Of a DNA stretch of 64,000 nucleotides, positions 2,591 through 61,326 are shown in pieces. The notes below the pieces were generated by a model. The model was not told where the DNA came from and made no database searches. It saw only the letters and a list, made by a program, of their open reading frames with translations. The translations under genes were made by a program, and so were the position numbers. Positions within the stretch are counted from its first letter, which is position 1, and each line of letters begins with the position of its first letter. The DNA lies in contig CAVWIK010000002.1 of assembly GCA_963755115.1 (NCBI GenBank), forward strand, positions 1,732,656 to 1,796,655, in the 5' to 3' direction. The DNA is from an uncultured Chloroflexia bacterium. Its GTDB lineage: Bacteria; Chloroflexota; Limnocylindria; Limnocylindrales; CSP1-4.

Positions 2591-2591
2591 C

Positions 2592-13384: not shown

Positions 13385-14516
13385 TCAGGGCCCGGTGAAT
13401 GTCGCGCTGAAACCGCAGCACTCGAAGGTCTGGACGTGCTCGCCCGACGTGTGGGCGATCGCGCACGTGTCGGAGTTGCGCATCGGTGTCGGCGTTGGCC
13501 GCGATGACCGCCACGCCGCCTTCGCCGCCGCGGATCCGGTCGCCGCTGACCGTGAACGACCCGTCCTGGAGGGCGATGCCGAAGTAGTCGTTGTCCCACA
13601 GGACGTTGTCTTTGATCCTGGCCGACGTATCGACGTAGATGCCCACCTGGTTGGCGAACAGCAGGTTGTCCGAGATGACGAGGTCGGACGCGCCGCCGCC
13701 GATCGCGGCCACCTGGAACTCGTTGAACCAATCCGGCCCGCAGCCGAGGTCGGGTGAGCCACAGGCATTGCCGCTCACGATGTTGCGCGAGATGGTCCCC
13801 GGCGTATCGAGGAGCTCGATCCCGCCGGTCGCCACGACCGTCGAACGGCCCTGTCCCGTGATGACGTTGTATCGGACGTCGACGCTCGAACCGTCCCCGC
13901 CGACGACGATGCCGTTCGATCCGAAGTCGCTGATCTCCGAGTGGTCGACGTCGACGCGGACCGAGCTGAAATCCACGGCCAGGATGCCGACGCCGCTGTG
14001 GGAGCAGTCGTCCAGGGGCGTGTTGCGGATGTGCACGACGCGGGCGAAGCTGAGGTCGAGCTGGCCCTCCTCGATCACGTTGATGCCCGCCCGCAGCTCG
14101 CCGTCGCCGCAATGACCGGCGCCGGGGCCGCTGATCGCGAGGTTGGACAGCCTGACGGCGGCGCCGCCGTGGATCTCGACGATGGCGGTGTCACCTTCGA
14201 CCCCCGTCGCGAGCGTGCCGGGCGCACGGACGACCGTCCTCCACGCGCCGGCCCCCACGATCGTCAGGTCCTTGTCGATCGAGAGCTGCTCCACGTACTT
14301 GCCCGGGCCGACCCGGATCGTGTCGCCCGGGTGGGCGGCATCGATGGCGGCCTGGATCGTCGGATAGGCCGAGGGGACGCGGATCACGCCCGGGTTGGCG
14401 CTCACGACCGCCGGCGCGGCCAGGACGATGCTCGCGAGCATGGACGCCCACAGCAGCGCTCCGGCGCGACGCGTTGGCCGACGACTGACGTTCGGGACTC
14501 GTCGAGACGCGCGCAT
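13385..14516 (-). pseudogene. secreted right-handed parallel beta-helix repeat protein, one frame break near 13480-13490
   Basis: Signal-like N-terminus MRASRRVPNVSRRPTRRAGALLWASMLASIVLAAPAVVSA, then beta-helix repeats. Downstream of ~13490 the high-GC3 frame switches and ends ...VQTFECCGFSATFTGP at 13385. The as-sequenced ORF runs on to 13293 in a low-GC3 frame. Confidence 0.65.
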
Positions 14517-14655
14517 CCTCAGCTCCTCCATCGCACGCACGGCCATGGGCTTCGAGCCACCGAGGCGGGGACGCTCGGGCACAGGGTGGGCGGCGGGCTC
14601 GACGGGCCGCGGATGGCCGGAGTATGCCCCGTGGGGCGCCGTCCGCGCTACAGCG

Positions 14656-14685
14656 TTGACTTATATAAGTCCTTCCTTCTAGACT
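14656..14685 (+). promoter_or_regulatory. putative promoter (TTGACT-18-TAGACT) with a 14-bp perfect palindrome GACTTATATAAGTC (14658-14671); likely ArsR operator
   Basis: The -10 box ends 6 nt before GTG 14692, so the transcript may be leaderless. The palindrome overlaps the -35 box and spacer. Confidence 0.5.
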
Positions 14686-14691
14686 GCGGAG

Positions 14692-15060
14692 GTGCACGCG
14701 TTCGACGTTCTCGGTGACCCGGTCCGACGGCGGATCCTCGAGCTGCTCGCCGAGGGGGAGCTTCCCTCCGGGGCGATCAGCACGACGGTGCAGGCCGAGT
14801 TCGGGATCTCGCAGCCGGCCGTCTCGCAGCATCTCAAGGTGCTACGCGAGAGCGGCTTCGCCACCGTCCGTCCCGAGGGCGCCCGGCGGCTGTACGCCGT
14901 CGACTCGGCGCCGCTCCACGAGGTCGACGCATGGCTCGACCCGTTCCGCCGTTTCTGGGGACAACGTCTCGACTCGCTCGCCACCGAGATCGCGCGTGGC
15001 AAGCGGGAACGGCGCCTCGGCGCCTCGAAGCCCGCCGCATCAAGGGAGGACCGTATCTGA
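14692..15060 (+). CDS. ArsR/SmtB-family transcriptional regulator
   Basis: Winged-helix pattern FDVLGDPVRRRILELL...ISQPAVSQHLKVLRESGF. The stop overlaps the ATG of the SRPBCC gene. Confidence 0.85.
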   Translation: MHAFDVLGDPVRRRILELLAEGELPSGAISTTVQAEFGISQPAVSQHLKVLRESGFATVRPEGARRLYAVDSAPLHEVDAWLDPFRRFWGQRLDSLATEIARGKRERRLGASKPAASREDRI

Positions 15061-15712
15061 TGGTCGACATCGTCCGCGAGATCGAGGCCGTCCAGCGCGA
15101 GGTCGGCAGTGGCCGGATCGCCGCGGGCGAAGGCCGGGCGGTCCGTCTCCGCCGCATCTACGACGCACCGATCGAGGACGTCTGGGACGCGCTGACGAGC
15201 CAGGAGCGGATCAGCCGCTGGTTCCTCCCGATCAGCGGCGAGCTCCACGTCGGCGGGCGGTACCAGCTGGAAGGCAATGCCGGCGGCGAGGTCCTCGTCT
15301 GCGACCCGCCGCACCGGTTCCGCGTGACGTGGGTCTACGGCGAGGTGACGAGCCCGGCCGACGTCTCCGAGCTGGAAGTGCGGCTGACGCCGGCGGGGGA
15401 GGGCAGACGACCGTCGAACTCGAGCACACCGCGATCGTCCCGGAGGACGCCTGGGCCATGTTCGGGCCGGGCGCGGTCGGCGTGGGCTGGGACGGTGGCC
15501 TGCTCGGGCTGTCGCTCCACCTGCAGGGCGTATCCATCGGCGATCCCGTGGCATGGCAGGTGTCGGCCGAGGGCCGCGACTTCAACACGCGGTGCAGCGA
15601 GGCCTGGGGAGCTGCGAACGAGGCGGCCGGCGCGGATCCGGCGGCGGCCGCGAGCGCCGTCGCGAACACCACCGCGTTCTACGCGCCGGACCCGGACGCT
15701 CCGCCATCCTGA
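15060..15712 (+). pseudogene. SRPBCC/AHSA1-family protein, one frame break in a G-run near 15394-15404
   Basis: Frame 1 reads MVDIVREIEAVQREV...ELEVRLTPAGEG. It continues in another frame as QTTVELEHTAIVPEDAWAMFGPGAVGVGWDGGL... Confidence 0.7.
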
Positions 15713-16398
15713 CCTGACGCGCCTGGGACGGCCCGGTCGAGGTCCCGGTCCTCCAGCTCCCACGCATGGTCCATGACGTGGTACGCGGTGCGCCGGATGA
15801 GGAACTGGATCGGCCAGGAGCGGGCCGGCTTGCCCTCGGCGTTGTAGGCGCGGATGGCGTCGAGATACTGCTCCCGATGCATCGCGAGGCCGTCCGTGGT
15901 GAGGACGACGTCGAGCGGGGTTCGGACCTCGATCTTCCGGGAGTTCTGCTCCGGCTCGGTCCCATAGACGTGGCGGACGATCTGGTCACGGCTGCGGCCG
16001 GCACTGCGGGATCCGGGCCGGAGCTCGTGCGAGACGCTCGCTGCCACGTCGTCGAAATACGCCCAGCACGCCCGGAGCAGGTCGAGCCGCCGCTCCAGCA
16101 CGGGCGGGGCCAGGACCTCGCGCTCGATCTGCGAGGGCACGTGGGCGATGCCCCAGAAATCCGTGGAGCTCGACCCGGGGACGCGTTCGACCACGTCAAC
16201 CTCGTGCGCCTTCGCGAACGCGCTCGCGAGGCCGGCCCGTTCGGCGACACCCGCGTACCGCGGGCGGTACGACGTCAGCTTGTCGAGCGCACCGTCCTCC
16301 GAGGTCCCCCAGCGGTCGAGGCCGGGCCAGTCCAGGGCACCCGCCACGACCCGGCGCTTCTTGCCGATCTCGAGCACGACCCGCAGCGTGTCGGTCAT
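15679..16398 (-). CDS. hypothetical protein with DinB-like C-terminal metal-binding helix bundle
   Basis: Starts MTDTLRVVLEIGKKRRVVAGALDWPGLDRWG. The C-terminus has YHVMDHAWELEDRDL. I recognise only the family type, not a function. Confidence 0.55.
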   Translation of the reverse strand: MTDTLRVVLEIGKKRRVVAGALDWPGLDRWGTSEDGALDKLTSYRPRYAGVAERAGLASAFAKAHEVDVVERVPGSSSTDFWGIAHVPSQIEREVLAPPVLERRLDLLRACWAYFDDVAASVSHELRPGSRSAGRSRDQIVRHVYGTEPEQNSRKIEVRTPLDVVLTTDGLAMHREQYLDAIRAYNAEGKPARSWPIQFLIRRTAYHVMDHAWELEDRDLDRAVPGASGQDGGASGSGA

Positions 16399-16478
16399 GC
16401 TGACAGGGTACGGCTCCTGGCTGGAAGCTGATGCAGCCCGGACCCGCGAAAGGAGACGCTCCATGCCGGCGCAGCGCC

Positions 16479-17582
16479 ATGACTGACCGCTTGCGTATCG
16501 GGATCGTCGGCTGCGGCGATGTCGCCCACCGGCACTACCTGCCTGGCCTTCGTTCGCGATCCGACGCGGTCCAGGTCACCGCGGTCGCCGACCCGAACCG
16601 CGAGGCGGCGCGCGCCCTCGCGACGGCCGCGGCGGACTGGTCACCGGGTGCCCGGACGTATCCGGGCGTCGAGGCCATGCTCGACGAGGAGACGCTCGAC
16701 GGGGTGTTCGACCTGGCACCCGCGACCCTGCACGGGACCGTCAACCAGGCGATCCTCGAGAGGGGCGTCGCCTGCTTCAGCGAGAAGCCGCTCGCGTCGA
16801 CGTTGGCGGATGCGGATGCCCTGCTCGAACTCGCCGCCCGCCGGCCGACGCTGTTCCTCGTCGCGCCGGGGTCCGCGGCCTCCGCTCGTGTCCGCTGGCT
16901 CAAGGACCTGGCCGACTCCGGCCGGCTCGGCGCGCCTACCCTCGCCGTCGCCCACCACGCGGATCCGGGGCCCGCGGCCTGGCGCGAATACACCGGCGAC
17001 CCCACGCCGTTCTACCGCGAGGGCGTCGGTCCCGTCTTCGACCACGGCGTCTACCGGCTGCACGAGATGACGAGCGTCCTCGGGCCCGTCCGTCGGGTGC
17101 AGGCGATGGGCTCGATCGCGATCCCGCACCGCCGGGTGCGTGGCGGCCCCCTCACCGGGCACACGATCGAGGTGACGACCCCCGACCACGTCCTGATCCA
17201 GCTCGAGTTCGTGAACGGTGCGCTCGGGCAGCTCCTCGCGAGCTTCGGCACGCCCGAGACCCTGATGCCGTGGCTCGAGCTCCACCTCACGCGCGGCACG
17301 GTGAGCTTCGGCGGCAAGTCGTGGGAGCCCGACGCCCCCGTGAGCGTCTACACGGACGACGAGACCGACGCCGCCACCGAAGGCTGGGCGCCCGCCGTCG
17401 ACGCGCCGCGCGACGCCTACGGCACCGTCGAGACGGGCGCGCGCCAGTTCGTCGCCTGCCTGCTGGGGGAGGAGCAGCCGATCCTGACCGCCGAGCATGC
17501 CCGCCACGTGCTCGACGTCATCCTCAAGGCCTATGCCTCGATCGACGATGGCCAGGCCCATGTCACCGAAACGACCTTCTGA
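16479..17582 (+). CDS. Gfo/Idh/MocA-family oxidoreductase
   Basis: Rossmann start MTDRLRIGIVGCGDVAHRHYLPGL, plus the EKPLA motif. Confidence 0.85.
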   Translation: MTDRLRIGIVGCGDVAHRHYLPGLRSRSDAVQVTAVADPNREAARALATAAADWSPGARTYPGVEAMLDEETLDGVFDLAPATLHGTVNQAILERGVACFSEKPLASTLADADALLELAARRPTLFLVAPGSAASARVRWLKDLADSGRLGAPTLAVAHHADPGPAAWREYTGDPTPFYREGVGPVFDHGVYRLHEMTSVLGPVRRVQAMGSIAIPHRRVRGGPLTGHTIEVTTPDHVLIQLEFVNGALGQLLASFGTPETLMPWLELHLTRGTVSFGGKSWEPDAPVSVYTDDETDAATEGWAPAVDAPRDAYGTVETGARQFVACLLGEEQPILTAEHARHVLDVILKAYASIDDGQAHVTETTF

Positions 17583-17584
17583 CC

Positions 17585-18508
17585 GTGCACGACAGCAGCC
17601 GACTCCGCCGCGTCGCCCTGATGGCGTCTGTGCTCGCGCTCGCCGCTGCGGGGTGCGCATCTCCGGCGACGCCCTCGGGATCGATCGTCCCGTCGGCTCA
17701 ACCGCCGACAGCCGCTCCGACTCTCGCCCCGACCTCGGCGCCGTCGAGCACGCCGACGCCGACGCCGACGAGCGCGAGCCCGACGCCCGCCGCCCTCCGG
17801 CTCCCGCCACCGAACGCCGCCTTCGACTACCAGCTCGGCGGCGCGTATCCGCCCCCGGCCGGCGTGACCGTGGTCTCGCGCGACCGCACCGAGAAGCCGG
17901 CGCCCGGGCTCTTCAACATCTGCTACGTGAACGGCTTCCAGATCCAGTCCGACGAGGTGGACTTCTGGAAGACGCAGCACCCGGACCTCATGCTCACGGA
18001 TGCCAAGGGCAAGATCGTCATCGATCCCGACTGGGACGAGATCATGCTCGACCCGAGGACGCCGGCCAAACGCTCGGCGCTCGCCGGCGTCATCGGCGAC
18101 TGGATCGCGGGATGCGCGGCCGACGGGTTCGATGCCGTCGAGATCGACAACCTCGACACGTTCACCCGCTCGCACGGGCTGATCACCGAGGACGATGCCG
18201 TCGCCCAGATGCGGCTCTTCGCCGACGTCGCGCACGCCAACGGCCTGGCCATCGCGCAGAAGAACTCGGCCGAGATCGTCGGCCGGCGCGCCGAGATGGG
18301 GACGGACTTCGCGGTCGCGGAGGAATGCGATCGATATTCGGAGTGCGACGTCTACACGGGCGCCTACGACGACCACGTGATCGTCATCGAGTACCGGCGG
18401 CGCGACTTCGCTGCCGGCTGCGCCGGATACCCGAGCCTGTCGATCGTCCTCCGCGACCTGGACCTGGTGACCCCATCGACGAAGGGGTACGTCTACGACG
18501 GCTGCTGA
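17585..18508 (+). CDS. lipoprotein, endo-alpha-1,4-polygalactosaminidase (GH114)-like
   Basis: Lipobox LALAAAGC followed by a P/T/S linker. Catalytic region includes ICYVNGFQ and FDAVEIDNLD. The start (GTG 17585 or ATG 17621) is uncertain. Confidence 0.7.
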   Translation: MHDSSRLRRVALMASVLALAAAGCASPATPSGSIVPSAQPPTAAPTLAPTSAPSSTPTPTPTSASPTPAALRLPPPNAAFDYQLGGAYPPPAGVTVVSRDRTEKPAPGLFNICYVNGFQIQSDEVDFWKTQHPDLMLTDAKGKIVIDPDWDEIMLDPRTPAKRSALAGVIGDWIAGCAADGFDAVEIDNLDTFTRSHGLITEDDAVAQMRLFADVAHANGLAIAQKNSAEIVGRRAEMGTDFAVAEECDRYSECDVYTGAYDDHVIVIEYRRRDFAAGCAGYPSLSIVLRDLDLVTPSTKGYVYDGC

Positions 18509-18518
18509 GCCAGGTTCG

Positions 18519-19569
18519 CTAGACCTTCTCCGCTACGAAGATCGTGAACCGGCTGAAGGTCGTCTCATCGGTCAGCCGAAGACCGGCTCGGGCGACCCTC
18601 GCCCGCACCTCGTGGGCCGTGTCGATCCGATTGCCCCACGTCGACTCGTACCACTGTGCGACCGTGGTGAACCGGCTCGGCATCGTTCGCATGCCCTCGT
18701 CCGTGTCGGGGTAGGCCTCGTCGAAGATCACGAGCGACCCGCCGGGTACGAGCGCGCGGGCCGCTGCGGAGAGGACGCCATCCTTGGCATCGGGCTCGAT
18801 CTCGTGGACGACGAGGAACGTCGTGATGACGTCGTACCGTTCGACATCGGTCAGTCCCTCGGGGCCGAGCAGCCGTGCGGCGCATCGGTCCGCCAGGCCG
18901 CGCCGTGCGATCCGGGCCGCTGCCAGCGCGACGGAGCGCGGCTCGATGTCGGCCCCGTCGACGCGACTCGCCGGGAACCGCTCCGCCAACTCGACGATCG
19001 CCCAGCCCGCCCCGCAGCCGAGGTCGAGCACTCGGGCCCCAGCCGACAGGCCCGCGTGGAGCACATCGAAGGCGAGGCAGCACCAGGTTGACGAAGATCC
19101 GGGGCAATGACCGCAGGCCGTCCGCGACCTCGGTGATGATCGCGTCGCTGTGGTCCTGGAATGCGAGGACCTGACCGCTGCGAAGGCGATCCGCCATCTC
19201 CGGGTAGTCCTCGCCACCGAGGAGCATGTGGACCCGTGCGGCTCGACCGAGGTAGAACGGCGAGTCGGGGTCGCCCAGGATGGCATCCATGTGCGGAGCC
19301 ATTCGCCACCCCTCGCCGTCACGCGACAGGATCTCGAACGCGAACGCCGTCCGGCACAGGACGTCCGTGTGGCCGGGGTCCGTCGCCGCGGCATCGGCCA
19401 GGGCCGAGGAACTGATCCCGGGCCGGCGGGTGATCGTCTCCCAGACCCCGAGTTCCCGGCCGATCTCGATCAGGTTGGTCAGGTGGTATCCCGCGATGAG
19501 GTCGTAGAGGCGTGACACCTGATCGGCAAGCGACGGGCCATCCGAGCCTCGCTCCGACGGCGAGGTCAC
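18519..19569 (-). pseudogene. class I SAM-dependent (O-)methyltransferase with N-terminal dimerisation/winged-helix region, one frame break near 19070-19085
   Basis: The N-terminal frame runs ...ITEVADGLRSLPRIFVNLV. The C-terminal frame carries ARVLDLGCGAGWAIVELAE...VVHEIEPD. Confidence 0.7.
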
Positions 19570-19578
19570 GTGACGCGC

Positions 19579-20139
19579 CTAGCCATCGGAGCCGGCCGTC
19601 CGCTCGCGTCGGCCTCGGCGGGCCAGGTCGACGGTCTCGGCGATGCGCTTCGCGCGCGTCTCGGGTCGCTTCGCGGCATCGATCCAGCGCACGAAGTTCT
19701 TGCGATAGAACGACGGCAACGAGTCGAAGAACCGCGCCGCCACCGGCTCGATGGCGAACGCGGCGGCGACGTCGGCACCCGAAGTGGTCGACTGCGGACC
19801 CTCCGGGGCCATCACGACGTCCACCTCATCGCCGGGTTGAAAGCCCGGACTCCGGCACCAGGCCGGGCCGAGCTGCAAGGACCAGGCACCGCCGGTCGAG
19901 GTCAGCGCCCCGCGGAACCGCTGACCACCCACGGTGCCGTGCACGTGGTACTGGTCACGCTCGCCCCAGGCGACCACAGGGTCGAACGGGATCGCCACCG
20001 CGAAGCCACCCTGTGGGCGGCCCAGGGCGGCGACCCGGAAGGTGCGGGTCCGGTCTGACCGGTGGACATGGTCGGCACGGTACCGTGGCGTCCTGCGACA
20101 TTGCAACGGTGAGCCTACGGGAGACACGGATGCGCCCAC
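19579..20139 (-). CDS. DUF1905 + YdeI/OmpD-associated family protein
   Basis: Contains FRVAALGRPQGGFAVAIPFDP...GDEVDVVM and a C-terminal FYRKNFVRWIDAAKRPETRAKRI. The start codon is uncertain (GTG 20139 or TTG 20106). Confidence 0.65.
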   Translation of the reverse strand: MGASVSPVGSPLQCRRTPRYRADHVHRSDRTRTFRVAALGRPQGGFAVAIPFDPVVAWGERDQYHVHGTVGGQRFRGALTSTGGAWSLQLGPAWCRSPGFQPGDEVDVVMAPEGPQSTTSGADVAAAFAIEPVAARFFDSLPSFYRKNFVRWIDAAKRPETRAKRIAETVDLARRGRRERTAGSDG

Positions 20140-20184
20140 TCGGGATGTGCCGAGTGGGCGCGCTTTGATCGCTGGGCTGCGAGG

Positions 20185-21057
20185 TCAGTCCGCGAGGACC
20201 TCGCGCAGCTTCGCGGCGAAGCCGTCGGGATCGCCGGGCATGCCGTACTCGTTCCCGAGGAAGCCGCCATGGCCGCTCGGGAAGCTCACCGGCTCCGTGC
20301 CGAGGCGCTCGGCGGCGGCGATCGCGCTGCGGTACGCCATCTGACCCTTCGACTCAACGCCGGCGGCCATGACGATCCGGGTGGAGGCCGCCCGAAGGGC
20401 GTCGAAATCCGGCTCGTAGTGCGTGCACGAGATGATGTTCTGACCGAGAAGCGGATCGGTCCGTGTGCCGTCGTCCTGGGTCGGCAGACCGAACATGGCC
20501 GGATCGGGGGCCGGCTGCGCGGCGAAGTCCAGGGTCATCGGTTCCGTGTAACCCACGACGACGATGAACTGCGCCATGCCCGGACCGAAGCCGCTGCGCA
20601 TGTACGTGTCATGCACCGCCTCGGTGACCGCCATCGCGCCCTCGCGATCGGGCAGGATCGACGCGAGCGGCGGCTCGTGCGCGACGAGCGTCCGGACCTG
20701 CTCCGGGTGCTTCGCGACGAGCGCGAGCGCGTTCACCGCGCCGCCGCTGCTGGCGAAGAGGTCGACCGGGCCCGCGTCGAGCGCGGCGATGATCCGGTGC
20801 AGGTCGTCGGCGTGCTGCTCCGGCGTGGACTGGCTGGCCGGGTCGGCCTTCGTGCTCCGCTCGACGCCGCGCGGGTCGTAGGTCACCACGGTGCGATCGG
20901 TGAAATGCCCGGCCAGCGTCGGGAACCCACTCGCGCCCATCGGCGATCCGATCATGAGCAGCACCGGGGCAGGGGAGTCGGCCTTCCGGATGTCGTAGGT
21001 CAGGACGGCACCGGGAGCGTCCAGGGTCTGCGTGGTCGGCTCGGTCATCGTGGTCAT
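20185..21057 (-). CDS. alpha/beta hydrolase
   Basis: Starts MTTMTEPTTQTLDAPGAVLTYDI with GAGGAGG upstream. Contains VLLMIGSPMGASGF and the nucleophile-elbow-like LFASSGGA. Confidence 0.8.
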   Translation of the reverse strand: MTTMTEPTTQTLDAPGAVLTYDIRKADSPAPVLLMIGSPMGASGFPTLAGHFTDRTVVTYDPRGVERSTKADPASQSTPEQHADDLHRIIAALDAGPVDLFASSGGAVNALALVAKHPEQVRTLVAHEPPLASILPDREGAMAVTEAVHDTYMRSGFGPGMAQFIVVVGYTEPMTLDFAAQPAPDPAMFGLPTQDDGTRTDPLLGQNIISCTHYEPDFDALRAASTRIVMAAGVESKGQMAYRSAIAAAERLGTEPVSFPSGHGGFLGNEYGMPGDPDGFAAKLREVLAD

Positions 21058-21097
21058 CGTGGTCCTCCTCGCTCTTTGCGCACATAGTCGAGTGGTC

Positions 21098-21370
21098 CTC
21101 CCCTTCACCGGCGTCCCTTCCCGCGCTCCCCCCCCCCCCCTTCCCCCCGCCCGATCCCCCAACCCCCGTACCGGCCCTCCCCTCCCTCCCCCCTCCCGCG
21201 CCCCCCCAACCCCCCAATTCTTCCACGGCTTTTAAAAAAAAGGCTTTCCCCCCCGCCCCCAAAAAAAGTATACCGCCCCGGGGTCCCCCCGCGCGCCCCC
21301 CCTAAAATATGTCTCTCTGGGCCCCCCCGCCCCCCCCCCACCCCAACCCCCCCCCCCCGGGGCCCCCCCC
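21098..21370. repeat. low-complexity C-rich (plus strand) / G-rich (minus strand) homopolymer tract
   Basis: C runs of 14 nt (21127-21140), 10, 12 and 8 nt are interrupted by an A8 run (21234-21241), an A7 run (21261-21267) and taaaatatgtctctct. The tract fills the whole intergenic space between 21057 and 21372. Confidence 0.9.
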
Positions 21371-21371
21371 G

Positions 21372-21878
21372 TCAGGCGGTCCGGACCGGGTCCTCGGCGA
21401 GGATGGCATCGATCTGGCCGACCGCCTGGGTCAGGCCTTCCTCCATGCCCATGGCCAGGACCTGCTCCATCGCCGCGGTGCTCGGGAAGTGGCTCTCGAT
21501 CTGCATCCGCGTGCGGCCGGCGTCGATCGGCTCGATCGTCACGCGCCCCTCGTTGCGCGGGAAGGACTCGTTCGGCGTGCCGTCGTCGTTCGCGAACCCG
21601 TCGAGGAACACGAGCCGGCGCGGCGGATCGGCCTCGAGGATGTCCCAGAAGCCGCGCGGCTGGTCGCCGCTTGGCCCGGTCATGTGGTATTCGACGTGGC
21701 TGCCGGGCGCCAGGTCGTGGACCGTGAAGGTCGCGGGGTAGGTCGGCGGGCCCCACCAGCGCTCGAGCTTGCGCGGATCGGCCCAGAGGTCCCACACGCG
21801 CTCCGGCGTGGCGTCGAACTCGGCGGTCAGGACCATGGTCAGGGCGTCGGGGTCCTTGTGGACAGCGGTGACAGTCAT
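21372..21878 (-). CDS. SRPBCC/AHSA1-family protein
   Basis: MTVTAVHKDPDALTMVLTAEFDATPERVWDLWADPRKLERWWGPP. The ATG overlaps the ArsR stop as ATGA. Confidence 0.85.
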   Translation of the reverse strand: MTVTAVHKDPDALTMVLTAEFDATPERVWDLWADPRKLERWWGPPTYPATFTVHDLAPGSHVEYHMTGPSGDQPRGFWDILEADPPRRLVFLDGFANDDGTPNESFPRNEGRVTIEPIDAGRTRMQIESHFPSTAAMEQVLAMGMEEGLTQAVGQIDAILAEDPVRTA

Positions 21879-22210
21879 GCGATGGTCTCCTCCGTGCTGG
21901 TGATGAGGTCCGTCATGCGGTCGATGCGGCCGCGCCACAGGGCCTCGTACTGGTCGAGCAGACCGCGCGCCAGGCGAAGCCCCTCGATGTTCGTGCGCAC
22001 GACCTTGCGGCGGCCGGTGCGCTCCTTGGTGACCAGGCCGGCCCGCTCGAGCACCGCGACGTGCTTCTGCACGGCCGCGAAGCTCATGGGGTAGTGCCCG
22101 GCCAGCTCAGCGACGCCCTCGTTGCCGTCCAGCGCGCGCAGGACGATGTCACGCCGGGTGGCATCCCCAAGGGCGGCGAAGATCTGGTCGGCGTTGAAGA
22201 CGAGCTGCAT
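21875..22210 (-). CDS. ArsR/SmtB-family transcriptional regulator
   Basis: MQLVFNADQIFAALGDATRRDIVLRAL...MSFAAVQKHVAVLERAGLV. I chose start 22210 because the promoter and palindrome abut it. Confidence 0.85.
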   Translation of the reverse strand: MQLVFNADQIFAALGDATRRDIVLRALDGNEGVAELAGHYPMSFAAVQKHVAVLERAGLVTKERTGRRKVVRTNIEGLRLARGLLDQYEALWRGRIDRMTDLITSTEETIA

Positions 22211-22246: not shown

Positions 22247-22306
22247 GCCTCGGTTGCCAGGCCGAACTTGGGCCCCCGGCGCGGCGTCGTCGAATGGGAC
22301 GAGGGA

Positions 22307-25114: not shown

Positions 25115-25126
25115 GGACTCGAAGGG

Positions 25127-51036: not shown

Positions 51037-53155
51037 ATGACCGACCTGCCCAACTCCACACCCGACGGCGAGACGCCTGCCGGCGACCCCGAGCTCGCGG
51101 CGCTCGTCCGGAGCGACGCACCGCCGCCCGCCGGCGACCCCGAGCTCGCGGCGCTCGTCCGACCCGACGCGGGACCCACCGCCGGCGATATCACGCCCGA
51201 GGCCGGACCGGATGCCACCGAGCCCGTCGTCGATGTCGCCGCAGCAGCGGCGGTCTCGAGCTCGCCCGATCCCGCCGAGCCGGCCCCGGTGGACGAGACC
51301 GTGCCGGTCCTGGTCCCCGTGGCCGCCGTGACCGCCTTCGAGCCGCCGGCACGGCCGCGGCGCCGACGGTCGCTCGCCCTCCGCTTCGGCGTCTCGTTCC
51401 TCCTCGCCTTCCTGCTCGCCTTCGGCGTCGGCGCCGGCGTCCTGTACGCATGGGGACAGCAGTACCAGGGCCGGGTCCTGCCCGGCGTCCGCGTCGGGAA
51501 CACGGAACTCGGCGGGCTCAGCCGCGAGGAGGCGGAGGCGCAGATCGCGAACGCCTACGGATCGCTCGGTACCGGGCAGATCACGCTCACCGGCCCGGAC
51601 GGCCAGGTGACGGCCATCAGCTACGCCGACGTCGGGCGCGGCCCCGACACCTCAGCGCTGATCGACGCGGCGATCGCCGCGGGCCACCAGGGCGAGCCCC
51701 TCGCGGACCTCATCGGCGCACCCCAGACCGCGATCCACGGCGTGACCATCGACCCCGCCGTCGCCTACGACCGCGACAAGCTGGCCGCCGCCGTCAAGAC
51801 CCTCGCCATGACGACCGACCAGACCCCCACCGACGCCTTCGTGTCGACCGCCGAAGGGGGGACACACAGCGTCTCCCCAGCGAAGGACGGTCGCGCCGTC
51901 GACCAGGCGGCCCTGGTGGCCGCGCTCGACCAGCAGCTCGCGGCGCTCGGCACGCCGGCGTCGATCGCGATGTCCGTGCCGATGGTGACGTTGGCACCCG
52001 CCGTCGCGACCACCTCGGCCGAGGAGGCGAAGGCGGCCGCGGATCGGATGGCCGCCGACGTGGTGGTCTCCCGCGGCAAGCACAGCTGGACGGTCGCCGG
52101 CAAGAAGCCTCGCGCGGCTGATCTCGTTCTCGACCGCGGCCGACGGGAGCATCACCCCGGTCCTGGATGAGTCGGGCCTCGACCCGATCGTCAAGAAGCT
52201 GGCCAAGCAGGTCAACCAGAAGGTGAAGGACGCGGGCCTCAAGCGGATCGGCGGCCGCATCGTCGCCACCGGGACCAGCCGCGAGGGCCGCACGCTCATC
52301 GCAGACGGCATGAAGGCCGCGCTCATCAGCGAGATCGGTGCCCGCCAGGCGGGCGCGGCGGCATCGCCGGTCGCGGCCGTCGTCAAGGCCGTGGACCCGA
52401 AGCTGACCACGGCGGACGCCAAGGCGTTCGCCCCGAAGATGCGGGTCATCAGCAAGTACAGCGTCTTCTACTTGGTCATCGTCAACAACCACTGGGGCGG
52501 GAACATCGAGGCGCCGGCCACGAAGATCAACGGCACGGTCGTGCCGCCAGGCGGGAAGTTCGACTTCTGGAAAGTCGTCGGCGACCTGCACAAAGCCCCC
52601 GGCGAGGGCCGGGCAACGCGATCGAGGGCGGGAAGATCACCGTCACCGGCGCGTTCGGCGGCGGCATCTGCACCACGTCCACGACGCTGTTCAACGCGGC
52701 GTTCCGTGCAGGCATGGTGCCGGTCGCCCGACAGAACCACAACGAGTTCATCCCCGGTATCCGCCGGGCCTCGATGCCACCGTGTGGATCGTCGGCAAGG
52801 CCAAGCAGACCATGAGCTTCAGGAACGACACCAAGTATCCGATCCTGATCCACGGATCATCACCCACGCCGGCAGCAAGCGATGGCTCACGTTCAAGATC
52901 TGGAGCGTCCCGAACCACCGGAACTCCAAGATCAGCAACCTGTCCATCCAGCACGGCCCGCGCGCGAGGAACACGATCGTGAGGGATTCGAGCAAGCCGG
53001 TGGGGTACCGGTTCTTCAACAACGCCCCGGCGGACGGCGCCAAGGTCGCGGTCACCGTGTCGATCTACGACCACGGCAAGCTCCACTGGCGGAAGCGGTA
53101 CTTCTCGAACTACCCAGCGGTGAACGGCGTCACCGTCATCGGCACGAGGCGCTGA
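51037..53155 (+). pseudogene. VanW-family protein with N-terminal TM anchor, at least 4 frame breaks
   Basis: MTDLPNST... is followed by the TM helix LRFGVSFLLAFLLAFGVGAGVLYAW. The VanW core GGGICTTSTTLFNAAFRAGM...ARQNHNEFIP / RYPPGLDATVWIV is recovered by frame hopping at about 52108, 52605, 52755 and 52855. Confidence 0.65.
51079..51180 (+). repeat. 51-bp tandem duplication inside the VanW N-terminal region
   Basis: Copy 1 (51079-51129) and copy 2 (51130-51180) share an identical first 32 nt, gccggcgaccccgagctcgcggcgctcgtccg. The encoded peptides are AGDPELAALVRSDAPPP and AGDPELAALVRPDAGPT. Confidence 0.85.
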
Positions 53156-53185: not shown

Positions 53186-53746
53186 TCAGGCCTCGTCCTC
53201 GGGCGCCTCCATCCGCTCGAGGAGCGCCATCGTCGTCTGCCAGTTGCGGATCGTCATCGACTTGTAGGCCGGCGTCCCCACGATCTTGCCGAGGCGGCTC
53301 TTGGTCCGTTGGGCGCTCAGTCGCTGCGAGTAGATCACGCCGGTTCCCGGCCACACCTCGTCGACGCCGGGCCGCGGGTCGAAGACCTTCATCGCCGTCT
53401 TCGCGTCGATATCGATGAGGAAGACCGCGTCGCTGTGGTACGTCTCCGGATGGTCGCCGAAGCCCTTCGGCCGCTTCCGAACGACGGCGCGGAGCTGGGC
53501 CAGCGTCAGGACCAGCACCGCGATCAGCTCGCTGTCGAGCTTGAACGTCTTGGGCAGCGCGTCCTCGAGCTCGCGCTTGATCGCGGCCGCGGACTGATCG
53601 GAGCTCAGGATCACGTTGCCGCTGGCGATGTACGTGGAGACCTTCGTGTGGCCGTGCGACTCGAGGAGGTCGCGCAGGGCCGCCATCGGCACCTTGTTCT
53701 TGCCGCCGACATTGATCCCGCGCAGGAGGACGAGGTATCGGGTCAT
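53186..53746 (-). CDS. DUF1697-domain protein
   Basis: MTRYLVLLRGINVGGKNKVPMAALRDLLE signature. Intact, 186 aa. Confidence 0.8.
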   Translation of the reverse strand: MTRYLVLLRGINVGGKNKVPMAALRDLLESHGHTKVSTYIASGNVILSSDQSAAAIKRELEDALPKTFKLDSELIAVLVLTLAQLRAVVRKRPKGFGDHPETYHSDAVFLIDIDAKTAMKVFDPRPGVDEVWPGTGVIYSQRLSAQRTKSRLGKIVGTPAYKSMTIRNWQTTMALLERMEAPEDEA

Positions 53747-53900
53747 GGGCGGGAGGATGCCACGACGTCGAGTCTGGATGTTCGCGCAGGCGATCGAACG
53801 TGTCATGGCGTCGCGGATGCCGCCAGCGATCCGCGGGACAATACGCCCCGACGCTTCGCCGTCGGCGTCGAATCGGATCCAGAGGAGGCAAGGAGGCATC

Positions 53901-54563
53901 GTGAAGCTGCTCCTCACGTCCGGGGGCGTGACGAACACGAGCATCGGCGACGCCCTGGTCGACCTGCTGGGCAAGCCGATCGAGGACGCCACGGCGTTGT
54001 GCATCCCAACGGCACAGTGGGGCCACCCGATGTGCGACCCGACGACGGCGCGGGGCTTCGTCACCGGCCTGCCCCGTGGGGTGGTATGAGCTCGATGGCG
54101 TGGAAGTCGCTGGGCCTCCTCGAGCTGACGGCACTGCCCACGATCGGCGCGGAGCGCTGGGTTCCCTGGGTCAGGGAGGCGGACGTCCTGCTCGTGGACG
54201 GCGGCGACGCCACGTACCTGTGCCACTGGATGCGCGAGTCCGGGCTCGCGGACCTCCTGCCGTCGCTGCCCGACACGACCTGGGTGGGGGTGAGTGCCGG
54301 GAGCATGGTGATGACGCCGCGGATCGGCGACTTCTTCGTGGAGTGGCCCTCGGCGCCGGACGACCGGACCCTGGGGATCGTGGATTTCGCGATCTTCCCG
54401 CACCTGGACGTCTTCCCGACGAACACTCTCGCCGACCGCCGAGCGCTGGGCGGCCGACATCGGGAATCCGGGGTACGTGATGGACGACCAAACCGCGATC
54501 CGGGTCGTCGACGGCAGCGTCGACGTCGTTTCCGAGGGGACCTGGAAGCTGCTCGGGGCGTAG
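53901..54563 (+). pseudogene. peptidase S51 / type-1 glutamine-amidotransferase-like (peptidase E family), 2 frame breaks (~54075, ~54440)
   Basis: AGGAGG precedes GTG 53901. The segments are VKLLLTSGGVTNTSIGDALVDLLGKPIEDATALCIPTA, then LLVDGGDATYLCHWMRESGL...WVGVSAGSMVM, then IGNPGYVMDDQTAIRVVDGSVDVVSEGTWKLLGA-stop. Confidence 0.65.
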
Positions 54564-56964: not shown

Positions 56965-57979
56965 TCAGACGTGTGGCGCGACACCCTCGGCGAGTTGCTG
57001 CATCACCTCGACCTGCGCCTCGTATTCGAGCATCGGCAGGTGGCTGCGCGCCACGAACTCGACCGGACCGGCGCCTGACGCCTGACCTCGAGCAGCGCCT
57101 CGACGAGCTCGTCGGGCGTGCCGGCGTGCGCGGTCCGGCGCGCCAGGAGCTTCTCGTCCTCGCCTTCGAACGGGGGAGGGGAGGCCGGCGGGAGCGACCG
57201 CGTCGCCGAGGCCTCCATGTCCGAGTATTTCCAGTTCAGCGCCCAGACGGCATCGCGGTAGCGGGCGAGCGCATCGGCGCGAGACGCGCCGGGCAGCAGG
57301 ATCGAGTAGTGGACGAACCGGAACGTCGAGGGGATCGCGACCGGCCTGCTCGAGCTCATCGAGCACCCAGCCGACCTGCTCCGAACTCGTCCGCCGGCGC
57401 ATTCGAGAAGATGCCATCCGCGAGGCGAGCCGCGCGGCGGAGGGCCGGCTCGGCGCCCCCGCCGATAAGGATCGGGATCCGGGTCGATGGCGTGGGACGC
57501 ACCGCGAGGGTCGGGAGCTGGTGCACGGAGCCCTCGAACGTGAACGGCTCACCGCTCCATGCCTGCGGGAGGATCCGGAGGGTCTCCTCCATCGCCGCGC
57601 CGCGACGCCGCATGTCGGCGCCGAGCCCGGCGTACTCGACCTCCGACCACCCGAGCCCGAGTCCGAGCGCGAGCCGCCCGTGGCTCAGGAGCTGGACCGT
57701 CGCCGCGTCCTCCGCCAGGCGCAGCGGGTGATGCATCGGCGCGAGGACGACGCCGGTGCCGATCTCGATCCGTGACGTCGCCTGAGCGAGGGCTGCGCTG
57801 ACCACGAGGAGCGAGGGCATGTAGCCGTCGTCGACGAAGTGATGCTCCGTCGTCCAGACCGAGCTGAAGCCGAGCCGCTCAGCCTGGACAGCCAGGCGCA
57901 CCGTGTCGTCATACGCACGCGTCCAGTCCGTCTCGCCAGGCCGAAGCTGGGCGCTGAGGAGTCCGAAGCCGAGGGTCAT
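56965..57979 (-). pseudogene. LLM-class flavin/F420-dependent oxidoreductase, about 3 frame breaks
   Basis: [11 protein letters not shown]...[13 protein letters not shown]...[14 protein letters not shown] is ORF 57356-57979. It continues through ORF 57003-57359 (FRFVHYSILLPG...) and ORF 56965-57552 (...PVEFVARSHLPMLEYEAQVEVMQQLAEGVAPHV). Confidence 0.65.
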
Positions 57980-58036: not shown

Positions 58037-59003
58037 CTACGGCTTCGGGTGGTCGACCAGGAAGTCCATCACGGCATCTGGAAACGCCTCCGAGACGCAG
58101 GGACGTGGCCGCCGTCGGGTCGTCCAGAGCTGGACGGCCGCGCCTGACTCGCAGCCTGACCATTCCCGACCGACGACTCGGCCGGATCGTCCCCGTCTGC
58201 TCGGTCCGCGTCAACATCGACCTTGTCGGTCAGCGTGGACGATGTCCCGTCGCACCCGTTGTATGTCGCCCATGTCTCGGCCGTCGTTTCTGCACCGGGG
58301 TAGGTGACTGCGATCGTGCCACCTTCATAGAGAATGGTGTCGTCGGCCGTCCGTGGATCTGCGACGACGGAACGGGCTCGCTCGGGGCGCAGTCCGTCGG
58401 GTCCGCATAGGTTGCGCCGGCCAGGCTGACAATGGCCGCGACAGGTCGGCCTGTTCGCAGGCCATCCGATACGACATGAAGCCGCCGTTGGAGTGCCCGA
58501 CGAAAGCGATCCGCTTCGGGTCGATGGCAAGCTCCGCCTGGGTCTCGTCGATGACGTCCGTGAGGTAGGCCACGTCGTCGACGTCGGCCCCAGAGAAATT
58601 GCAGCAGGCATCGGTGGCGTTCCAGAACCGGTTGCCGTCCTTGTCCAACGTCCCATCGGGATAGGCGTAGACGAAACCTCGTGCTTCGGCCGCGGGACCC
58701 AGGTTCAAGTACGTCTCGATCCTCGCCTGAACTGGTGAAGCCATGCAGCAGGATCAGCAACGGGGCGGGCTGGTGTGCGTCGTACGAAGCCGGGATGTGA
58801 ACGGTGACGGGTCGGTCGCCACCGACGACGAGGTCCGCCTGGGGAGTGGCGATCTCGGCCGGCTTGGACGGCGATCGTGGTGCCGTCGTCGGCGAGGGGG
58901 CCAATGACCCGCCCGCGCAGGCTCCGGCGATCAGGCTGACGATGGCCGTGAACGCGAGCCGGCGGAGCGCGTGCCTCGGAGCCGGGTCCTGCGGCCTACC
59001 CAT
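58037..59003 (-). pseudogene. secreted PHB-depolymerase-family esterase (LpqC-like), at least 4 frame breaks
   Basis: GAGGAGG precedes ATG 59003, followed by the lipobox-like LIAGAC. Segments PLLILLHGFTSSG, FVYAYPDG...FWNATDACC, IAFVGHSNGGFMSY, VAAIVSLAG and ILYEGGTIAVTYPG...FLVDHPKP-stop are spread over three frames. Confidence 0.65.
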
Positions 59004-59493
59004 CGACTCGAGCCTCCTCGCTCACCTGCGCTCGACGACCGCTGCCCGAGACGATAGCGCGAGCGCGCAGACGCACTTGGGCGCGGGCGCGAGCTCCGGG
59101 CCTCGAGGCAGCACGAGGCTTTGCGCCGACCGTCGAGTTCCGGGGTCGGTATCGGGGTGGATGGGCGTATCGATCCGGCTCCTGCAGTCGGCCGAGCTCG
59201 ACGTCGCGTTCGGCGGCGCCGACTGGCGAGGCAGGGGAGGGGATGGCGACATCGAGCGCGAGGGTCATATGGTTCAGGCTCAGCGTCCATCGGTCCTGTG
59301 CTTCCCTCTGGGTGCAGCGGGAGGCGCCGCGGCCACGCTAGACCCGAGCTTCGACATACGGGATGTATTTCGAAGCGCCTGCAAGTCTCGCATCGCTATC
59401 CGGCGCTCGTTCGTGAAGCCTTGACGATCGTCAGCGACAGGTTGAAGTAACCTCGTTCTCTGAAACGGCATGTTTCCTACCAGGAGGCGAGCA

Positions 59494-59760
59494 ATGGTCG
59501 ACGAAGTCCCACTCTTAGCAATCAGATCGGTTTCCGTGTCAGGGACTACCGTGGGCCACACGAGGATTACGGCGACGGAGCCGGAGAGACCTCAGACGAC
59601 CAACGCGACTCGGAGATCCGCGTTGTCGCTGGAGAGGGAACGCCGGTACTCGCACAGGGGTCGATGCCAGTCCGTGGCAAAGCACTGGGTCACCCCTCCT
59701 CACAAGGCAGACCCCGGAGACAACCGACGACCCCGGAGATCGATGACGGCCTGGGGCTAT
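59494..59760 (+). other. candidate precursor-peptide coding region upstream of the ATP-grasp ligase (reading frame unresolved)
   Basis: Frame 1: CAGGAGG, 6 nt, then ATG 59494 (MVDEVPLLAIRSVSVSGTTVGH..., 99 aa, runs to 59793). Frame 0: open from 59451 with an internal ATG at 59664 (MPVRGKALGHPSSQGRPRRQPTTPEIDDGLGL). Its TGA at 59758-59760 overlaps ATG 59759 of the ligase. Confidence 0.35.
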
Positions 59761-60687
59761 GAAACATCCGACAGTCGTGGTCGTTTCGTATGACGAGGAT
59801 GAGCACGGAACCTACTTAATTCGCCTGCTGCAGGAACGCGGCGTTGACGCAATTCGTGTCTCCTATGACGACGCCGTGCGCGCCCGCTGACCTGGGATAC
59901 ACTTAGTTCAGGAATTGGATTCGGTGGTCTCGACGGATCCAATGTCGCGGGGATCTGGCGACGGGCAGGAACGCTGACCATCGGCGGCGTGAAGCCTGAA
60001 TACGCGACGTTTGCAATGAGTGAGTGGAAAGACGCGTTCGAAGGCGCCCTGGCGGCGGCGCCCGTTGCATGGCTGTCGACTCTGGGAGCGATGCGCCACG
60101 CGGAGCTAAAGCTAGTTCAGCTCGCCTCCGCGCAGCGACTCGGGATTCCGTATCCACGGACTCTCGTGACCAATGACCCGCCCGCTGCCCGCCGCTTTGC
60201 AACTGCTCATGCGACGGTCGTCAAGCCGATCAGATATGGCCTTGTGTCTCTTGAGCCTCCGCGCATGGCGTGGACCCGCGACATCTTGCCCGATGAACTC
60301 ACCGCAATCGACGGTCCACCAATCATGCTTCAAGAGCGGGTTTCGGTCGATTATCACTTGCGAGTAGTCACTGTTGGCTCGATCGCCTTCCCATCCAAGC
60401 TCAGAACCGATGCCTTGGATTGGCGTTCGGATGAGGCCAATCACGACCGCTTCCGTTCGTCGATGGAGTCGAGAGACCGCGCCACTGCCGAGGCCGCGTG
60501 CAAGTTGGCGTCGACTCTGAACCTCGGTTTCTCAGCGCAGGATTGGGTTGTGGATCGCGATGGCAGTGAGTACTTTCTCGATCTGAATCCGAATGGGCAA
60601 TGGATGTTCCTCGACCCAGCATGGGAAGGAGCAATCGGAATCGCGATGGCGGCCAAGCTGGAGGCGTTGACGACATGCCGGGCATAG
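59759..60687 (+). pseudogene. MdnC/MvdD-type ATP-grasp peptide maturase (graspetide ligase family), one frame break between 59848 and 59888
   Basis: It is colinear with MdnC as I recall it. MKHPTVVVVSYDEDEHGTYLIRLLQERGVDAIRVSYDD is in one frame. AGIWRR...HAELKLVQLASAQRLGIPYPRTLVTNDPPAARRF...LQERVSVDYHLRVVTVG...LDWRSDE...FSAQDWVVDRDGSEYFLDLNPNGQWMFLD is in ORF 59989-60687. Confidence 0.7.
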
Positions 60688-61326
60688 CTCGTCGAATTGC
60701 GGCATACCTACTTAACGACGCCGCAACTGCTGAGGCCCTTGATCCAGTTCCGTTAGGAAATCCGCCGCAGTGGCTCGTTGATGCGACTGGAGACCAAGAC
60801 CGCGCGACATACGCGGTGGAGGTCTCAACCAAGAGCGTCGAACTCGCCGATGCTGCCGTCGACGGGTTGCAGGCGAAAGCATCGAGTCACCTCACGTTTC
60901 TGCTGGCGCTGGTCCCGTTCGCCCTGGCTGCAACAGCGCTAAGCCTCCCTCCGTCCTCGTCGCCAAGCCTCGGCCGGATGACAGCGTTTCTGATTTTCTG
61001 CGTGGCAGACGCGTCGCTGCTAGTTGGGGTGGTCTTGGCTTCGCTGGCGGGGGGACTGGTTCTCCGAGGGGGTATCAGCCTCGACCGACTCGGAAACCTC
61101 GCCGACGAGATGGCCACTGATTCACCTAGAGATCCAATCGCCGCATTGAAGGCCGCCCAGGCTGAAGCGCTTCGTTACGCCGCCCTAAATTCGTACTCTG
61201 CGGGCGTCCGCGTCGGCAGCGATCTTTTACGCGGCTAAACGATTCACGTTCATCGCGCTTCTGCTCGCAACAATCGCGGTGATCGTTCTAGTTCTGGCCG
61301 GCGGTGGGCTAGACGTGTTTCGCTAG
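60675..61326 (+). pseudogene. hypothetical 3-TM membrane protein, frame break near 61228-61236
   Basis: ATG 60675 overlaps the ligase 3' end by 13 nt. The protein has a ~90-aa soluble N-terminus and two TM helices (LTFLLALVPFALAATALSL and FLIFCVADASLLVGVVLASLAGGLVL). A third TM helix (FTFIALLLATIAVIVLVLAGG) appears after a +1 shift, ending at TAG 61324-61326. Confidence 0.45.

Follow-up and report, generated by a model that had tools for sequence, protein, structure and literature searches.

Single-base frame breaks running through adjacent genes are known both from genomes in decay and from long-read assemblies. In the pseudogene-rich regions of Mycobacterium leprae, Rickettsia and recent host-restricted symbionts, adjacent genes are frameshifted, some genes among them remain intact, and the location is accessory. 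Real decay is marked by nonsense mutations and truncations, by a rise in dN/dS, by deletions that exceed insertions in size and, often, by IS elements; bacterial pseudogenes show a deletion bias and carry roughly 10 substitutions per indel, and pseudogenes make up a few percent of the genes of soil bacteria. Consensus errors in Nanopore-only assemblies made with Flye --meta and Medaka at low coverage are likewise single-base indels, which split gene calls in genes that are conserved. Classic descriptions of Nanopore error stress long homopolymers, and low-complexity, homopolymer-rich 'junk' is also met in long-read contigs. The accuracy of Nanopore-only assemblies is coverage-dependent, and Nanopore bins below about 40x coverage require short-read polishing (PMC9262707).

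The DNA analyzed here (the window, 64 kb) comes from a high-GC Chloroflexota (Limnocylindrales-like) whose closest public relatives are Microflora Danica (MFD) MAGs. It resembles the pseudogene-rich regions in having adjacent frameshifted genes with some intact genes among them in an accessory location, but none of the listed marks of real decay was seen in the window. It resembles low-coverage Nanopore-only assemblies in that conserved genes are split by single-base indels, and a clustered, insertion-biased pattern of breaks is common to the MFD MAGs and the window.

Distribution of frame breaks in the window

At ~70% GC, plain ORF lists were useless, and GC3-periodicity Viterbi segmentation was used instead. 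A first blastx junction scan was dropped because antisense ORFs and frameshifts within the references themselves made it too noisy. Breaks were finally located using our own frameshift-aware protein-to-DNA aligner, an event being kept if all or nearly all spanning references agreed, together with the continuity of Pfam and PDB matches. The frame switches at 4117, 5795, 15031, 21879, 30603, 32531, 39816, 41854 and 46674 were ordinary gene boundaries rather than breaks, and the events at 54705, 54755, 55432 and 55466 were judged unreliable, as they probably lie in untranslated sequence upstream of start codons. The intact DUF1697 gene served as an anchor for retrieving related loci, and 79 of these were gathered for comparison.

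The window does contain frame breaks, and they are distributed very unevenly. About 48 were located, of which 1-13.3 kb holds none, 13.3-43.5 kb holds 11 and 43.5-59 kb holds 37 (chi-square 65.5, p = 6e-15 for heterogeneity among blocks), i.e., grades of 0, 0.36 and 2-13 breaks per kb. At the rate of the middle block, the first 13.3 kb would escape any break with a probability of 0.008. These counts agree with a preliminary description of the sequence, in which no break was reported in 1-13.3 kb, about one per gene in 13.3-43 kb and at least ~30 in 44-61 kb. It was also argued there that uniform error would not spare a 4.45-kb ORF in the first block, and that argument is correct.

1..13300: clean block, 0 breaks; two PNPOx genes, a cyclase-like gene, glyoxalase, TMEM175, an AadA-like gene, NmrA, an LLM gene, a 1546-aa Ig-repeat protein and an MFS transporter

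The segmentation showed no within-gene frame switch in this block. Each gene occupies one open frame with complete Pfam domains, and the 1546-aa ORF at 6591-11231 is a single, unbroken frame.

13301..43500: sparse-break block, 11 single breaks, 0.36 per kb
~13480: beta-helix protein, 1 break (frame-plot evidence only)
~15402: SRPBCC/AHSA1, 1 break
~19077: O-methyltransferase, 1 break (PDB chain 5f8c aligns over the junction)
~28745: histidine kinase, 1 break
~28949: response regulator, 1 break
33161: FAD monooxygenase, 1 break (frameshift-aware orthologue alignment)
35054: sigma factor, 1 break (frameshift-aware orthologue alignment)
~37071: LLM gene, 1 break
~39646: response regulator, 1 break
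40332: histidine kinase, 1 break (frameshift-aware orthologue alignment)
42509: ABC ATPase, 1 break (frameshift-aware orthologue alignment)

In this block there is one break per gene, in the same genes as had been listed previously, and Pfam domains are contiguous across the frame switches. The block also holds a low-complexity segment.

21069..21394, + strand: homopolymer-rich segment of ~325 nt, with runs of C13, C12, C10, A8 and others

The genes flanking this segment lie only 12-22 nt apart in three related loci (L046, L014 and L033), and a comparable homopolymer cluster was found in 0 of the 79. With its long C and A runs and no counterpart in relatives, it resembles the junk of long-read contigs and probably is such sequence, which would place assembly noise within the sparse block as well; a genuine C-rich spacer peculiar to this lineage is conceivable.

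The dense block (43.5-59 kb) comprises the following genes.

44257..45628, + strand: BBE/FAD-binding oxidase, 5 breaks at 44359 (+1), 44609 (+1), ~45117 (+1), 45347 (-1) and 45445 (-1)
45666..46268, - strand: RibD_C gene, intact, one ORF in which the Pfam RibD_C domain is complete
47368..47781, - strand: F420H2-dependent quinone reductase, 1 break at 47548 (-1)
47862..48825, - strand: LLM / F420-dependent oxidoreductase (LLM at 47858), 13 breaks, ten of them +1, at 47894, 48052, 48092, 48126, 48160, 48215, 48355, ~48368, 48414, 48469, 48492, 48631 and 48677
51038..53149, + strand: VanW/PG_binding_4, 4 breaks at 52105 (+1), 52605 (-1), 52754 (-1) and 52852 (-1)
53186..53746, - strand: DUF1697 gene, intact, Pfam 1-137 of 137, relatives 71-96% identical
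53892..54557, + strand: peptidase S51, 2 breaks at 54070 (-1) and 54440 (+1)
55374-55752, + strand: small gene, break at 55617 firm, 55432 and 55466 tentative (a single reference for all three)
55803-56231, - strand: small gene, 1 break at ~56120-56123 (+1)
56965..57979, - strand: LLM / F420-dependent oxidoreductase (LLM at 56965), breaks at 57067 (-1), 57330 (+1) and 57379 (2-nt deletion)
58040..59021, - strand: esterase-like gene with a GHSNGG motif, breaks at 58103, 58166, 58348 and 58443 (all -1) and 58709 (+1)

The hottest spot of the window is the LLM gene at 47.86-48.83 kb, with 13 breaks within ~0.8 kb. For eleven of these, 38-40 of 40 independent full-length references agreed, and for the other two 28/40; the corrected gene is essentially full length against the same references (residues 2-316 of 318), with 82% identity and no in-frame stop. 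The LLM at 56965 was corrected with the agreement of 40/40 independent 338-aa proteins and then aligned over 0-338 of 338 at 91% identity, again with no stops. Support was complete for all five breaks of the BBE oxidase (8/8 homologous ORFs), which regained Pfam FAD_binding_4 (1-139 of 139) and the BBE domain after stitching, and for the quinone reductase (8/8 homologues), in which the Pfam domain crosses the junction. It was also complete for VanW (9/9), the exact indels being visible in a 17-sequence nucleotide alignment; for the S51 peptidase (7/7), which after correction aligned to positions 0-222 of a 223-aa reference; and for the gene at 55803 (8/8), in which the inserted G can be seen in the nucleotide alignment. 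The esterase breaks were backed by 5-6 of 6 homologues. Previous counts by gene were close to these for the BBE oxidase (~5-6, now 5), the LLM at 56965 (~3, now 3) and VanW (at least 4, now 4), and the minima given for the LLM at 47858 (at least 5) and the esterase (at least 4) are raised to 13 and 5.

The genes at 45666-46268 and 53186-53746, previously reported as intact, are both single unbroken genes with complete Pfam domains. The RibD_C gene showed no private frame-breaking indel in a 26-sequence nucleotide alignment, and private indels were absent from the window's copy of the DUF1697 gene in a nucleotide alignment. At 2 breaks per kb, the chance that a gene of ~600 nt escapes is ~0.3, and these spared small neighbours are therefore uninformative about selection.

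In the remainder of the region, 48831..51000 showed no codon periodicity and no counterpart in related loci, and a six-frame Pfam search of 48.7-51.0 kb was empty; it is either non-coding, lineage-specific DNA or coding sequence damaged beyond reading. A Pfam search of the ORFs at 59.7-61.2 kb and 56440-56916 gave no match; by eye, the ORF at 59989-60687 might be guessed to be ATP-grasp-like, and Pfam gave no match for it.

Sequencing technology and an error-like spectrum

The MFD MAGs were assembled with Flye --meta and one round of Medaka, without short-read polishing (PMC12313526). When 24 Nanopore-only MFD loci were passed through the same pipeline (the sample leaving aside the remaining 39 Nanopore loci), they gave 120 supported breaks in 156 kb, or 0.77 per kb. 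Sixteen loci from short-read MAGs of the same clade gave 4 breaks in 51 kb, or 0.078 per kb (p = 1e-10), a contrast that is partly confounded with phylogeny and in which short-read contigs may under-represent variable regions. The breaks of the Nanopore relatives are tightly clustered (8 in 0.7 kb in L006, 13 in 2 kb in L010 and 12 in 1.3 kb in L018) and biased toward insertions (98 to 22). The window has the same error-like spectrum, with 30 insertions and 18 deletions, a tally that enters at least one 2-nt deletion as +1.

The earlier remark that G/C runs hold many of the breaks was not confirmed. Homopolymers near the breaks (longest run within 6 nt) had a mean length of 2.60 nt, compared with 2.44 nt in the background (p = 0.14), and in nucleotide alignments the indels fall at single bases or 2-3-nt runs. 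They are therefore unlike the classical homopolymer-type error of Nanopore or 454 data, which affects runs of about 5 nt or more. The window further differs from classic Nanopore error in that density shifts sharply within one contig. Together, the non-homopolymer sites and the sharp change in density argue for a local cause (read depth, strain mixing or missing polish) rather than a systematic limit of basecalling.

The best explanation for these observations, to which we would give a probability of about 0.88, is that the frame breaks arose as errors in the consensus of a long-read metagenome assembly (most likely a Nanopore-only one) and are not mutations in the organism. The long-read origin of the window is itself suggested by its relatives and by the pattern of error. 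Errors would be concentrated where the local consensus was poor: consensus accuracy in Flye/Medaka metagenome assemblies tracks local read depth and strain homogeneity, and a stretch covered by few reads (a strain-specific accessory segment, for example) or left unpolished retains indel rates near those of raw reads. Well-covered stretches are clean, and the three grades of 0, 0.36 and 2-13 breaks per kb could arise in this way. The breaks lie outside long homopolymers and so differ from what textbooks describe as residual error at good Nanopore coverage; this explanation needs the additional assumption that depth was locally very low, strains were mixed or polishing was missing; any of these may have been the local cause.

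Real mutations as an alternative

Locally poor coverage or polishing and real decay of an accessory region were the two options put forward in the preliminary description. The first is favored; full-length genes, the absence of nonsense codons and the link to technology tell against the second. As a full account, in which genes at 44-59 kb and some at 13-43 kb were recently inactivated by real single-base indels after relaxed selection, decay is improbable. It would fit the location of the dense block in a region of variable gene content (46.3-50.9 kb and 53.8-55.8 kb, for instance, are absent from L049) and the somewhat lower GC there. Other MAGs also carry orthologues with several breaks each (BBE in L010 and L018, VanW in L023), but those copies likewise come from Nanopore-only assemblies, and such breaks are lacking in the short-read MAGs of the clade.

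The condition of the broken genes also speaks against decay. The orthologue comparison and the dN/dS check that had been proposed were both carried out: the orthologues are single-frame, and the frame-corrected genes are full length and align end to end with intact homologues. No nonsense codon was found inside the corrected genes, despite 37 frameshifts in the dense block. Measured against the nearest orthologue, dN/dS was 0.05-0.33 for broken genes and 0.10-0.45 for intact genes, i.e., not raised and in keeping with ordinary purifying selection, in a comparison with limited power for very recent events. At ~10 substitutions per indel, a gene with as many indels as the LLM at 47858 (13) should have gained over 10% of additional neutral divergence, yet total dN in this gene is just 0.106. 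Insertions are the more frequent class, whereas pseudogenes tend toward deletions, and the indels lie away from the homopolymers and repeats where real indels concentrate.

Private changes give a similar picture. Differences from conserved homologues were dominated by indels of 1-2 nt, with no corresponding rise in substitutions. In columns otherwise invariant, private frame-breaking indels stood to private substitutions as 4 to 9 in VanW, 3 to 7 in LLM and 1 to 2 in the gene at 55803, an indel-to-substitution ratio of ~0.4 for VanW and LLM. Counted over columns invariant in all other sequences, private substitutions numbered 9 in VanW (median 21.5) and 7 in LLM (against 3), and those of the window were not elevated relative to other sequences in the same columns. 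A same-species copy of two broken genes was sought in independent assemblies, with none at or above 95%; the best matches had 92% and 80% amino acid identity.

A mixed cause, in which most breaks are consensus errors and a minority, such as the isolated ones at 13-43 kb, are genuine pseudogenizing mutations, is very unlikely. Single breaks per gene at a density of 0.36 per kb fit either cause, and some pseudogenes are to be expected in a soil bacterium. Against this, 9/11 of the sparse-block breaks are +1 insertions, which resembles the spectrum seen both in the dense block and among the Nanopore relatives, all 11 of the genes concerned are otherwise full length with complete domains, and the probable junk insertion at 21.1 kb indicates assembly noise in this block too.

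Were the indels real, they would amount to an unusual burst inactivating an accessory island: a very recent, indel-prone and insertion-biased event (through error-prone repair synthesis, for example) in a soil Limnocylindrales population, disabling more than 15 neighboring genes before substitutions accumulated, with similar independent bursts in related populations. The evidence is against such a burst, which we regard as hardly credible. Programmed frame changes (ribosomal frameshifting, transcriptional slippage or phase-variable contingency loci) share the single-base shift and nothing more specific, and are effectively refuted by orthologues that are all single-frame. The sites lack homopolymer or repeat enrichment, their positions are not conserved, and as many as 13 shifts, some forward and some backward, in a single gene fit no known recoding mechanism.

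Consequences for long-read genomes

Since the breaks resemble local consensus errors of a Nanopore-type assembly, they are best treated as a problem of sequence quality rather than as biology of the organism. Windows of this kind inflate pseudogene counts, fragment genes and reduce coding density, and comparative or selection analyses of long-read MAGs can be misled by them. Assemblies of this kind can have highly localized error, here between 0 and 13 frameshifts per kb over 64 kb and independent of homopolymers; genome-wide quality scores and homopolymer-aware fixes will therefore miss it. The proteins themselves are recoverable by homologue-guided frame correction.

Distribution of frame breaks along the window

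The window has a GC content of about 70% with a strong third-position GC bias, which made raw ORF lists uninterpretable; codon-position GC segmentation was therefore used. Gene frames were assigned with a Viterbi model that has seven states, works on codon-position GC and forbids in-frame stops, and runs of neighbouring same-strand segments were joined and translated for the Pfam scan. Related loci were gathered with the intact DUF1697 gene (53186-53746) as the query, keeping one genome per species, and 79 were found (71-96% amino acid identity). The window was aligned to the coding-frame ORFs of these loci and to 80 proteins of full length that two database searches had yielded, using our own local protein-versus-DNA aligner, which permits +1 and -1 frameshifts. 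A break was accepted only if all or nearly all references across the site agreed; an event that appeared against just one of many references was treated as a defect of that reference and excluded.

The non-uniform break density claimed in the preliminary description was correct and, if anything, understated. As it had stated, 1-13.3 kb contains no break: each gene there, among them a 1546-aa ORF, occupies a single open frame and has complete domains. Eleven breaks, one per gene, were found at 13.3-43.5 kb in the genes it had named, and 37 at 43.5-59 kb. Per kb, the three blocks carry 0, 0.36 and 2.4 breaks, and the density peaks at 12.6 (heterogeneity chi-square 65.5, p = 6e-15). If the middle-block rate applied to the first 13.3 kb, finding no break there would have a probability of 0.008. 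Two side observations need correction. The intact small neighbouring genes (603 and 561 nt) are uninformative, as their probability of being spared at the local rate is about 0.3, and breaks were not enriched in G/C or other homopolymer runs (mean longest run within 6 nt 2.60 vs 2.44 at random positions, p = 0.14). In nucleotide alignments with 16-25 orthologues the indels hit single non-repeated bases or runs of 2-3, and one was a 2-nt deletion.

At 13.3-43.5 kb, a Pfam domain was continuous over the frame switch in seven cases (AHSA1, HATPase_c, Response_reg twice, Bac_luciferase, HisKA_3 and ABC_tran). Sigma70_r2 bridges the sigma-factor break, one of four backed by orthologue alignments (the others are at 33161, 40332 and 42509). 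The halves of FAD_binding_3 in the FAD monooxygenase lie in different frames, and a single PDB chain (5f8c) spans the O-methyltransferase junction in an alignment of residues 10-264. The break near 13480, in the beta-helix gene, was called from the frame plot and sequence character only.

Breaks at 43.5-59 kb, with the references supporting them
BBE oxidase: 5 breaks; 8/8 references
Quinone reductase: 1 break
LLM (F420-dependent oxidoreductase) at 47858 (47862-48825, minus strand): 13 breaks in ~0.8 kb; 40 references
VanW: 4 breaks; 9/9 references
S51 peptidase: 2 breaks; 7/7 references
Gene at 55.4 kb: 1-3 breaks
Gene at 55803: 1 break; 8/8 references
LLM at 56965 (56965-57979, minus strand): 3 breaks; 40/40 references
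Esterase: 5 breaks; 5-6 of 6 references

Two protein architectures were also observed. The intact 1546-aa protein (6591-11231) combines several Ig-like ASH/HYDIN/Cep192-type repeats with a partial FAD_binding_4 match (residues 368-439), which is unusual. At 36001-37841, a luciferase-like monooxygenase and an NADPH-dependent FMN reductase (FMN_red) share a frame across an Ala/Asp-rich linker; this could be a two-component monooxygenase in fused form or a pair of neighbouring genes.

Condition of the frame-corrected genes

The broken genes are in perfect condition once the frame is corrected. As the preliminary description had proposed, orthologues were compared; the homologues read through in one frame, and the breaks were located against them. 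The corrected LLM at 56965 covered all 338 residues of 40/40 independent proteins with 91% identity; most of these proteins came from JGI and ENA assemblies. The corrected LLM at 47858 covered residues 2-316 of the 318 of its references at 82% identity, despite 13 frameshifts. No corrected gene contained an in-gene nonsense codon. The dN/dS comparison, also proposed as a check for decay, gave no sign of it: values against the nearest orthologue were 0.05-0.33 for broken and 0.10-0.45 for intact genes.

At columns invariant elsewhere, private substitutions were not elevated (VanW 9, median 21.5 in others; LLM 7 vs 3), and there were four private frame-breaking indels in VanW and three in the LLM. 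The resulting indel-to-substitution ratio of ~0.4 in the window far exceeds that of real bacterial sequence evolution, in which there are roughly ten substitutions per indel. At that rate, if the 13 indels of the LLM at 47858 were real, they would entail a neutral divergence greater than the whole dN of the gene (0.106). The window breaks comprise 30 insertions and 18 deletions; bacterial pseudogenes show a deletion bias.

Related loci and atypical segments

Nearly all of the 79 loci are from MAGs named 'uncultured Chloroflexia bacterium MFD...bin', and the remainder from a few short-read MAGs that carry Limnocylindrales or Chloroflexota labels. The genomes named MFD belong to the Microflora Danica long-read catalogue, which is Nanopore-only and was assembled with Flye --meta --nano-hq and a single Medaka round (PMC12313526). 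In the same pipeline, 24 Nanopore-only MFD loci totalling 156 kb gave 120 breaks with full support (0.77 per kb; 98 insertions vs 22 deletions), whereas 16 loci from short-read MAGs of this clade, 51 kb in all, gave 4 (0.08 per kb; p = 1e-10). The MFD breaks form tight clusters, five of which hold 8-13 breaks per 0.7-2.5 kb; other MFD loci have 0-1. The multiply broken BBE and VanW orthologues are all in Nanopore assemblies, and intact BBE homologues are present in at least eight other loci.

Dense frameshift clusters in Nanopore relatives (handles denote related loci)
L018, 12940-14225: 12 breaks in 1.3 kb, in the BBE oxidase orthologue
L010, 5836-7816: 13 breaks in 2 kb, in the BBE oxidase orthologue
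L023, 4780-6372: 13 breaks, in the VanW orthologue
L006, 15764-16426: 8 breaks in 0.7 kb
L014, 10820-13314: 13 breaks

Gene content near the DUF1697 anchor differs among relatives (window 38-59 kb vs L049, L018, L002 and L011), as does block order at 38-46 kb; L049, for example, lacks the equivalents of 46.3-50.9 kb and 53.8-55.8 kb. The chromosomal region at 38-59 kb in the window is accessory and rearranging.

At 21069-21394, a 325-nt intergenic segment made up of long C and A homopolymers (C13, C12, C10, C8, A8, A7 and others) contains 14 of the 19 window homopolymers of at least 6 nt. In three related loci (L046, L014 and L033) just 12-22 nt separate the genes that flank it, and no similar stretch was found in any of the 79. 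It is probably long-read noise taken into the consensus, though it might instead be a genuine C-rich spacer particular to this lineage. For the ~2.2 kb at 48831-51000, codon periodicity was absent, a six-frame Pfam scan gave no match, and none of the 79 loci has an equivalent; about 90 aa on the plus strand, near 50.2-50.5 kb, look protein-like. Errors may have made a coding sequence here unreadable, or the DNA may be non-coding or lineage-specific. Finally, 59000-61600 has lower GC (0.62-0.65). The apparent N-terminus (MKHPTVVVVSYDEDEHG...) of its ORF at 59989-60687 (plus strand) sits in another frame, which suggests at least one further break. Neither this ORF nor a 212-aa ORF at 60600-61238 had a Pfam match; the ORF at 59989-60687 may be ATP-grasp-like, an impression by eye only.

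Origin of the breaks

Several independent lines, among them the homopolymer segment at 21069-21394, agree in favouring an artefact over real decay, and the comparison with relatives is decisive. Of the two causes offered in the preliminary description, the evidence supports locally poor coverage or polishing, as the genes are sound after correction, the changes are dominated by indels and the breaks follow the Nanopore assemblies of relatives. Nanopore consensus accuracy is depth-dependent, and bins below ~40x need short-read polishing for HiFi-like quality (PMC9262707). A contig of a soil MAG may cross segments carried by few reads, for which strain-specific accessory DNA, collapsed diverged strains and stretches that the polisher left as draft are candidates. 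The dense block lies in a part with variable gene content among relatives, which fits a strain-specific, low-depth reading. At ~1.3% indels, the LLM at 47858 comes close to raw-read error, as would be expected of a consensus from one or two reads. We infer low depth, strain collapse or missing polish, on a long-read platform.

Recent, genuine decay of an accessory region, the other cause offered, is very improbable. The absence of nonsense codons, the dN/dS values and the private substitutions give it no support; it would take a sudden run of indels that favour insertion, lie outside repeats and come with no substitutions, and among relatives this would have to recur only in Nanopore assemblies. 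It keeps a small probability because a search for independent data from the window's population found none, the best protein matches being 92% and 80% identical. A mixture, in which a few isolated breaks at 13-43 kb are real, is about equally improbable. Programmed frameshifting and phase variation are ruled out, since their motifs are absent at the sites and the orthologues are in a single frame. The clustered breaks are not a biological feature of this bacterium, and the value of their pattern is as a quality flag for the sequence.
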